A DNA stretch of 64,000 nt. It comes from a virus. The position numbers were made by a program, and so were the translations under genes. Positions 52,724-53,010 of the stretch are shown here, in pieces (within the stretch, counting starts at the first letter, position 1; the number at the start of each line of letters is the position of its first letter). The DNA is taken from positions 29,363 to 93,362 of IMG/VR virus record IMGVR_UViG_3300046096_000411. One strand, given 5' to 3'. The notes beneath the pieces were generated by a model, which ran no database searches, was not told where the DNA came from, and saw only the letters and a list, made by a program, of their open reading frames with translations.

Positions 52724-53010
52724 TGGTGGGCGCTGTAGGGCTCGAACCTACGACCCGCTGATTACGTACCGCCACGGTTTCCACCGCCCCCGAAGGGTTT
52801 GCAGTCTGGACTATCCCTTCGCCATGGCCCGAAGGCTGTAGGCGGGTGCCGTCTAGTCTCTACACCTTCCCCTTGCGGGGCTTGGCTCGGGATTGCCACC
52901 AGCCGAACTGTGAGGGTTCCCCGACTTTGACACCTGTTCACCGACCGGTTTCCCGAGCGGGCTCCTAATACGTCCAGAGTCAGCTGCTCTGCCAACTGAG
53001 CTAAGCGCCC
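52724..53010 (-). tRNA. tRNA-Lys(CUU) interrupted by a group I intron
   Basis: Exon 1 53010-52976 GGGCGCTTAGCTCAGTTGGCAGAGCAGCTGACTCT; exon 2 52764-52724 TAATCAGCGGGTCGTAGGTTCGAGCCCTACAGCGCCCACCA; gives a 76-nt cloverleaf. Confidence 0.93.
52765..52975 (-). ncRNA. Self-splicing group I intron (211 nt, Azoarcus-like IC3, no ORF)
   Basis: U before the 5' splice site; terminal G; IGS AUUAGGAG pairs with both exons; GCCAAGC, GAAGGUGUAGAGACUAGACGGCACCC and GAUAGUCCA core elements. Confidence 0.92.

Follow-up and report, generated by a model that had tools for sequence, protein, structure and literature searches.

The genome analysed here, a complete one of a temperate phage, carries a tRNA-Lys(CUU) gene that is interrupted inside its anticodon by what its sequence marks as a small group I intron, and that stands beside a tyrosine integrase gene and a candidate attP core. 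On balance, we favour the reading that this gene is a ribozyme-dependent replacement tRNA-Lys(CUU) in an attP-int module, serving tRNA-dependent lysogeny. The placement of an intron-bearing replacement tRNA in a phage integration module is undescribed in the literature that we searched. The virus record is linear and 93,362 b long, and the window (the whole 64-kb stretch of DNA that was analysed) is part of it.

The gene and the inverted repeat that brackets it are composed as follows.

53009..53021: inverted repeat, right arm, leader side, partner of 52714..52726
52976..53010, minus strand: tRNA-Lys(CUU) exon 1, 35 nt, nucleotides 1-35, ending C32 U33 C34 U35
52765..52975, minus strand: ORF-less group I intron, 211 nt, starting GGACG and ending GGUACG
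52724..52764, minus strand: tRNA-Lys(CUU) exon 2, 41 nt, nucleotides 36-76, starting UAAUCAGC, CCA encoded
52714..52726: inverted repeat, left arm, trailer side, 13 nt, perfect

When the exons were joined, a canonical 76-nt tRNA-Lys(ctt) was obtained, which ARAGORN with the intron option reported as i(36,211). The intron is located between nucleotides 35 and 36, inside the anticodon. A sequence-only reading had placed the intron at 52765-52975 and had described its splice geometry; the coordinates proved exact, on the minus strand, and the geometry was found in the sequence as described. The internal guide GGAG (52965..52962) pairs with exon CUCU, with U35·G at the 5′ splice site; the first four bases of exon 2, UAAU, can pair with AUUA (52969..52966), and the last intron nucleotide is G (52765). 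The loop CUCUUAA is obtained from a single pair of splice sites, because the bases flanking the two junctions differ. For true introns the splice sites called by ARAGORN were often 1–3 nt off, and they were re-derived on the condition of U at −1, a terminal G, an unbroken anticodon stem and a spliced product that is a valid tRNA. Through the 13-nt inverted repeat, the 5′ leader of the precursor would pair with the 3′ trailer. The leader GTGAAGTT is common to this gene and to the tRNA-Lys(UUU) gene of Aeromonas phage ST4. The promoter scan gave no sigma-70-like call upstream of the tRNA.

As that reading had anticipated, standard scans pass over this gene. Default ARAGORN made zero tRNA calls over the whole 64-kb window, and Rfam at gathering thresholds gave no match in the whole window. 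The suggested check with a group I intron model was run as a local search with Rfam Intron_gpI and matched all 253 model positions (1-253) at 38.3 bits (E 2.7e-08), which is below the gathering score of 50. According to Williams' 2020 preprint (10.1101/2020.01.27.920355), the Rfam seeds include no bacterial ones, and a working cut-off of 18–20 bits was used there. With the intron option, ARAGORN found tRNA-Lys(CUU) as the sole tRNA of the 93-kb genome; its intron-option tRNA-Ala at 22398-22671, within a 1436-codon ORF and without Rfam support, was rejected as false. No repeat of the tRNA occurs elsewhere in the virus record. The term ORF-less was also apt, since the longest ORF wholly within the intron has 43 codons. 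No homing endonuclease gene was found inside or beside the intron, which thus does not qualify as endonuclease-mobile.

The fold of the intron was assigned along the minus strand.

52969-52966, minus strand: P10 guide AUUA
52965-52962, minus strand: internal guide GGAG
52961-52941, minus strand: P2
52934-52929 with 52850-52845, minus strand: P3
52925-52919, minus strand: P4 5′ strand, then P5
52886-52864, minus strand: P6
52860-52854 with 52813-52808, minus strand: P7
52844-52820, minus strand: P8
52804-52769, minus strand: P9

RNAalifold applied to a 16-sequence alignment recovered the anticodon stem, P1, P2, P3, P4, P5, P6, P8 and a branched P9. In the named structure, which includes the P7 pseudoknot, 97.9% of cells were paired across the 16 sequences, and compensatory changes on both sides were seen in 26 of 71 pairs, also in the P7 pseudoknot. 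Not one of 500 shuffles matched the real alignment on any measure, and slid controls were paired at ≤47%. The U·G at the 5′ splice site (columns 9/20) was present in 16/16 sequences, and the terminal G before TAATCAG was invariant. In the UUU tRNAs, U34, the anticodon wobble base, formed U·G in four and U-A in one with the P1 position opposite it. The conserved P3–P8 core was found with its P3/P7 pseudoknot, and its G-binding P7 contains a bulged A. In the phage copy 68 of the 71 consensus pairs are intact and the strands of the catalytic core are identical to those of its relatives; its P1 has just four clean pairs because two pairs kept by the relatives are lost. The single-sequence MFE fold of the intron (z −0.66) did not recover the group I fold and is uninformative for this G+C-rich RNA. 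Judged by sequence and alignment, the intron belongs to the group I introns of the small bacterial tRNA type. It may be assigned to subgroup IC3, following what Williams' report gives for the classical classes.

Related introns were sought by a P2–P4 motif scan of genomes, which yielded 20 bacterial loci. Fourteen of these are tRNA-Lys genes with the intron at 35/36, nine with CUU and five with UUU; they come mostly from alphaproteobacterial MAGs, with Neomegalonema, two Pyrinomonadaceae and one gammaproteobacterial MAG in addition. The nearest intron, at 86.5% identity to the phage copy, is found in a Reyranella MAG, and the other relatives are 70–82% identical. The Reyranella exons agree with those of the phage at 33/35 and 37/38 positions (70 of 73 compared) and include a compensatory 6:67 change in the acceptor stem. 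According to Williams' preprint, the four classical classes of bacterial tRNA introns are Leu 34/35, fMet 33/34 and Arg and Ile2 36/37, and the report raises the total to 21; its seed alignment (10.1101/2020.01.27.920355) includes Lys.4Ug (35/36), Lys.3Ug and Lys.2Ug. The phage intron has tRNA-Lys exons, follows the fourth loop nucleotide, and shows U at −1 and a terminal G. By that listing, both the tRNA-Lys host gene and insertion at 35/36 are already known in bacteria and the phage intron joins the described class Lys.4Ug. The earlier view that Lys(CUU) at 35/36 is unusual was overstated, given this class and the nine CUU loci among the 14.

The tRNA gene adjoins a region with the features of an integration module, in which the integrase gene is divergent from the tRNA.

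53039..53056: arm-type repeat TGCGCCCTATTAGCGCCC, P′ side, candidate integrase arm-binding site
53075..53112, minus strand: hairpin CCAGCAA...TTGCTGG with a T-run, terminator-like, between core and tRNA
53121..53128, minus strand: isolated ACTCTTAA, candidate attP core, equal to A31 plus the spliced tRNA-Lys(CUU) anticodon loop
53248..53265: second arm-type repeat TGCGCCCTACTAGCGCCC, P side, with a partial inverted copy at 53296-53306
53317..54483, plus strand: tyrosine integrase with N-terminal arm-binding domain

The integrase matched Pfam Phage_integrase (1.7e-19), Arm-DNA-bind_3 (4.9e-14) and PHROG 1. Direct repeats TGCGCCCTAYTAGCGCCC at 53039 and 53248 bracket the 8-mer. The 8-mer lies 113 nt from the tRNA gene on the same strand and is followed by non-tRNA sequence; about 0.01 chance matches to ACTCTTAA are expected in the 306-nt spacer. 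The hairpin at 53075..53112, whose function as a terminator is presumed from its form, was uncalled in the consensus scan because its loop is too long. The neighbouring genes encode a Dda-like helicase, a protein of 163 aa assigned to no family, the integrase, a DksA/TraR-like protein, a spanin and an endolysin. It had been proposed that the phage itself or a free-standing nuclease could be the vector of the intron. The phage is a reasonable vector, and the attP context strengthens this part of the idea, but no free-standing endonuclease gene is located nearby.

The record is syntenic with the isolated 90–95-kb phages Jeremy, Dolphis and Touem01 (Pseudomonas), PHB04 (Bordetella) and ST4 (Aeromonas), with the common gene order exonuclease, ATPase, HU-like protein, helicase, gap, integrase, TraR/DksA-like, lysis and tail genes. 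Phage genes stand on both sides of the tRNA in the order of the isolated phages, which makes the tRNA gene one of the phage rather than part of a host flank. The slot before int holds tRNA sequence in these relatives as well. In Jeremy, Dolphis and Touem01 it is only the 3′ part of tRNA-Arg(ACG), running from the anticodon loop through CCA, and in PHB04 a 3′ fragment of tRNA-His(GUG). ST4 has a whole uninterrupted tRNA-Lys(UUU) and a separate site like its anticodon loop, and a whole intron-free tRNA-Lys(UUU) also occupies the slot of L158 and L159, whose integrases are 40–41% identical to that of the phage. ARAGORN 'introns' that joined tRNA 3′ fragments to sequence inside int genes were discarded as false calls. 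An 88%-identical integrase (P0002) is encoded on a 121,868-nt contig; this contig exceeds the phage in length and might represent a lysogen.

Two sister phages are informative. L021/L149, an independent metagenome contig about 95% identical to the phage, has the same tRNA, intron and arrangement; at the tRNA locus L021 differs by only two substitutions, of which one falls in the D loop and the other at an unpaired position of P9. L150, with an integrase 94% identical (tblastn) and DNA 85–89% identical, is without the intron and without exon 1, and the 163-aa gene is present also there. Its attP, of the classical kind with a tRNA 3′ half, contains only A31-CUCUUAA-...-CCA of tRNA-Lys(CUU), joined directly to the same right arm toward int, and this fragment is 100% identical to exon 2 of the phage over 41 nt. 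Homology between the phage and L150 resumes exactly at ACTCTTAA, and in L150 the 8-mer continues into the tRNA 3′ half, giving a 46-bp core. By this homology, ACTCTTAA at 53121-53128 is a probable short attP core. On either side of the site in L150, Jeremy, PHB04 and ST4, doublets resembling arm-type repeats were seen by eye.

Integration at the ACTCTTAA core would take place in a host tRNA-Lys(CUU) gene. Since the attP core is without a tRNA 3′ half, the host tRNA gene would be left cut on integration, and the phage's own spliced tRNA would replace it. The expected attL would consist of the host tRNA 5′ half, ACTCTTAA and ACACTAAGTCC..., and the expected attR of ...TCTCGCC, ACTCTTAA, TCAGCGGG... 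and the host 3′ half. The predicted attL pattern TGACTCTTAAACACTAAGTCCAGC had no match in metagenome or viral contigs, and the predicted attR pattern GATTYTCGMCACTCTTAATCAG had none in metagenome contigs. The phage integrase was not found in the five genomes with the nearest introns; among 401 sampled Alphaproteobacteria genomes, one had a 43% relative, adjoining a 3′ fragment of tRNA-Leu(CAA). Of 401 sampled genomes of Alphaproteobacteria, the class of the Reyranella MAG, 16 contained the tRNA 3′ half as an uninterrupted 46-mer, as against 0 of 401 sampled from the class to which the MAG titled Gammaproteobacteria belongs; the host of the phage is therefore probably alphaproteobacterial.

The sequencing runs that contain the stretch are several, all of freshwater-metagenome DNA, and no RNA run was among the runs listed. 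At 80% likeness, the contigs of four runs gave mostly tRNA genes or intron cores of other organisms. A contig joint that skips exactly 211 nt is an intron-free tRNA-Lys(CUU) of unassigned origin, and a second joint is a tRNA-Asn; both were set aside. Another contig (X8) is perfect over 52423-52764 and departs exactly at the border of exon 2 and the intron, as an intron-free variant or a junction would.

Integrated analogues with the same intron class, in which resident tRNAs are cut in the predicted way, were seen in two alphaproteobacterial MAGs. At locus L138, the resident tRNA-Lys(CUU) breaks off after nt 42, and 125 nt of A+T-rich DNA separate it from a complete intron-bearing tRNA-Lys(CUU); no integrase of the phage's family was found in this incomplete MAG. 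In genome G806, a resident tRNA 5′ half adjoins an intron-bearing copy (L143), and on another contig an integrase lies 125 nt from the matching tRNA 3′ half (L238). The two halves have complementary acceptor strands and share a duplicated core of 14 bp, the junctions being on different MAG contigs. The L238 integrase belongs to the same broad family as that of the phage, with 32% identity (E 2e-53). By analogy with these loci, whose integrases are distant or unseen, the host tRNA would be cut in lysogens of the phage.

The group I mechanism suggests how the replacement tRNA would mature. The precursor would fold into P1–P9, and free guanosine in P7 would attack the phosphate after U35, held in the U·G wobble with GGAG. 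The terminal G (52765) would then occupy the same P7 pocket and U35 would attack the 3′ splice site, giving a tRNA with the loop CUCUUAA that reads AAG, the codon used for 77% of the phage's lysines. Splicing, expression, attB and the dependence of lysogeny on the phage tRNA are what we infer.

The intron might also act on the DNA. By splitting the 8-bp core, it would keep the replacement tRNA from being a second attB for the phage's own integrase or for rival elements targeting tRNA-Lys; we put this forward as a tentative suggestion. Deprived of its intron, the phage tRNA would stand close to attP as an attB-like site in direct orientation, and recombination with the attP core would delete exon 1. 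ST4 manages without an intron, and the intron is therefore not obligatory for the design. If masking is true, cut-and-replace phages and islands would be a main vehicle by which ORF-less tRNA introns spread among bacteria, which would answer how endonuclease-free introns move. The locus offers a testable reason for the position of the intron, masking of the att core, as well as a route by which it could spread. It joins two literatures, that on ORF-less bacterial tRNA introns and that on tRNA-dependent lysogeny.

Other explanations of the locus were weighed against a replacement tRNA. The one we take most seriously, although we doubt it, is that the tRNA-Lys(CUU) was captured with its intron from an alphaproteobacterium and that the intron splices but is otherwise neutral and unlinked to integration. 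The nearest relative is chromosomal-looking, with the intron and exon identities in the Reyranella MAG given above, most of the 14 bacterial loci have neither a second loop copy nor an integrase within 8 kb, and the intact tRNA-Lys in the slot of ST4, L158 and L159 indicates that the design needs no intron. Against this, the unrelated phages Daredevil (described below) and the present one have introns of different classes that both cut their own attP core sequence, their tRNA genes lie 113–165 nt from the core on the same strand, and among 120 viral loci an integrase-like ORF is found beside just these two tRNA-Lys cases. That the tRNA is mere cargo, decoding abundant AAG or replacing a nuclease-cleaved host tRNA-Lys, with its place beside int incidental, seems unlikely to us. 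AAG makes up 77% of the lysine codons (a share of 0.77 in 35 long ORFs), phage tRNAs that escape tRNA-targeting defences are documented (PMC10264068, PMC11555353), and a PrrC link for tRNA-Lys was raised in PMC10865867. But a single tRNA in a 93-kb genome speaks against cargo, as do sister L150, which manages with the 3′ half alone, and the slot, which across the phage family holds tRNA fragments or genes matching the nearby core.

Decay of the intron, or a tRNA pseudogene that no longer splices, would fit a P1 shorter than in the relatives and a sub-threshold Rfam score. It is nevertheless very improbable in view of the intact pairs and identical core strands, together with exons that fold into a flawless tRNA. 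Still harder to credit is that the tRNA is a host gene lying at the border of a prophage, or that the assembly is chimeric. IMG/VR records can carry host flanks and this record is linear, but the conserved phage genes on both sides, the same arrangement in the independent contig L021, the presence of the stretch in several freshwater runs and the lack of a second tRNA copy in the record all argue against it.

Among known ribozymes, the intron of Azoarcus pre-tRNA-Ile(CAU) (IC3) is also small, ORF-less and located in the anticodon loop. The close likeness of the cores that had been claimed holds for the strands shared with the Azoarcus row of Williams' alignment, compared by eye only, but not for P9. 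By eye, the P3, P6, P7 and J8/7 strands are nearly identical, with GGUGUC, GCC-AAG, GGU-GUAGAGACUA-GAC-GGCACC and AUAGUCC shared in that row. In contrast, the Azoarcus intron is inserted at 36/37 of tRNA-Ile2 and its P9 is a single hairpin there, whereas P9 of the phage branches into two hairpins. The Lys.4Ug seed Mpe6, as it stands in Williams' alignment, resembles the phage intron in the 35/36 insertion, U at −1, terminal G, helices and P2-to-P4 motif. The Neomegalonema perideroedes locus L137, which has the intron start and P2 of the seed, aligns with the phage intron at 76%. The seed as listed is from a tRNA-Lys(UUU) gene in a bacterial genome, whereas the phage copy has CUU and lies in a free phage genome beside attP and int. 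According to a 2014 review (PMC3984707), every phage intron known at that time lay in a protein-coding gene, although phages carry many tRNA genes. In the literature searched, we found no paper describing a phage tRNA gene with a group I intron, and none in which the terms 'group I intron' and 'tRNA-dependent lysogeny' occur together.

A motif scan of viral sequences gave this intron core in more than 120 contigs, mostly within tRNA genes, and an integrase-like ORF was nearby in only two tRNA-Lys cases among the 120 viral loci, namely this phage type and Gordonia phage Daredevil (NC_048021). Daredevil matches exon 1 and the intron at 69%. Between its int (gp54) and gp53 we found an unannotated tRNA-Lys(UUU) with a 238-nt intron at 34/35, which fits 63 of the 71 pairs of the consensus fold. 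A 16-nt copy of the spliced anticodon stem-loop lies about 165 nt upstream of this tRNA on the same strand, and GTCCGTTTA repeats flank this 16-nt core. Daredevil therefore resembles the present phage in its int, arm repeats, anticodon-stem-loop core and whole tRNA-Lys split by a related group I intron. It differs in having tRNA-Lys(UUU), insertion at 34/35 (Williams' Lys.3Ug type) and an actinobacterial host. Both Daredevil and its host are laboratory strains. Daredevil was reported to integrate at tRNA-Lys-TTT with no rebuilding and was said to be without its own tRNA (PMC10865867), which an intron-blind scan explains. Intron-blind tRNA scans can in this way mislead phage biology. Its plaques were reported as clear (PMC10865867), and its intron-bearing copy therefore may not complement.

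The model of tRNA-dependent lysogeny is that of Guerrero-Bustamante and Hatfull 2024 (PMC10865867). The actinobacteriophages Fionnbharth, cluster L, Cain and Gaia described there have the same type of arm-binding tyrosine integrase, and they share with the present phage a short attP core from the anticodon region, flanking arm sites and a cognate whole phage tRNA. [quoted passage not shown] Close relatives of the actinobacteriophages rebuild the tRNA with a long core, as L150 does. The complementing tRNAs of those phages are uninterrupted, whereas the tRNA of the present phage would be matured by a ribozyme, is encoded 113 nt from the core and would serve a host that is probably alphaproteobacterial.

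The tRNA-Lys(CUU) gene of the window, on the minus strand, is bracketed by repeated sequence, and a hairpin lies just upstream.

Window 52714-52726 and 53009-53021: perfect 13-nt inverted repeat, on both sides of the tRNA-Lys(CUU) gene
Window 53039-53028: hairpin GGGCUUCGGCCC, just upstream of the inverted repeat and tRNA gene

Through this inverted repeat, the precursor's leader could base-pair with its trailer. The leader GTGAAGTT is common to this gene and the uninterrupted tRNA-Lys(UUU) of Aeromonas phage ST4. A contig from metagenome run X8 (record 26) matched window 52423-52764 perfectly, ending at the border of exon 2 with the intron. 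Beyond 52764 it reads AGAGTCAGCT..., which is the end of exon 1, and the intron is absent. This contig could stem from an intron-free phage variant, or it could span a junction to a tRNA of the host.

A motif scan found the intron-core motif AAGGTGYAGAGRCYRGAYGG in at least 120 IMG/VR viral contigs (L009-L128). Among the matches listed, the majority were in split tRNA genes, which may be phage genes or lie in host flanks. Leu(UAA) was the commonest, and Arg, Met, Ser, Thr and Phe also occurred. Some calls had odd anticodons, probably as a result of misplaced splice sites. At window 22398-22671, ARAGORN with the intron option predicted a tRNA-Ala(cgc) interrupted by an intron of 175 nt. This call was rejected as a false positive because it falls within an ORF of 1436 codons and Rfam does not support it.

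The sister phage (L150, IMGVR_UViG_3300047547_000167, 2180-2330) contains a classical attP, in which a tRNA-Lys(CUU) 3′ half joins the right arm common to the window phage. Its arm repeat is on the opposite side of the tRNA fragment relative to the window phage; therefore the two attP designs differ by module exchange rather than by simple deletion.

Integrated elements were located in two alphaproteobacterial MAGs, and repeated tRNA-Lys(CUU) 3′ halves in two alphaproteobacterial genomes.

L138 2126-2580: integrated element, first MAG
L143 5265-5760 and L238 105-1560: integrated element, second MAG
G057:C12 14200, 66992 and 84651: tRNA-Lys(CUU) 3′ half copies
G230:C4 817345, 834404 and 845220: tRNA-Lys(CUU) 3′ half copies

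In both MAGs the resident tRNA-Lys(CUU) was cut at the anticodon loop and not rebuilt, and the element brings an intron-bearing replacement tRNA-Lys(CUU). In L138 the replacement runs in the same direction as the resident gene, and in L143 it runs in the opposite direction. The three 3′ halves within 30-70 kb in each genome are as expected for tandem islands at tRNA-Lys(CUU).

Unannotated tRNA 3′ parts of attP type precede the integrase gene in four isolated phages, and every one begins at the anticodon loop.

L005 5486-5995: tRNA-Arg(ACG), Pseudomonas phage Jeremy
L006 5684-6217: tRNA-Arg(ACG), Pseudomonas phage Dolphis
L007 6690-7141: tRNA-Arg(ACG), Pseudomonas phage Touem01
L008 8533-8892: tRNA-His(GUG), Bordetella phage PHB04

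Gordonia phage Daredevil (NC_048021, ~41.8-42.3 kb; L002 1325-1807) is without a tRNA of its own according to PMC10865867. Between gp54 int and gp53 we found an unannotated tRNA-Lys(UUU), with a group I intron of 238 nt inserted at 34/35. The attP core of Daredevil, a 16-nt copy of the anticodon stem-loop accompanied by GTCCGTTTA arm repeats, is located 165 nt upstream of this split gene.
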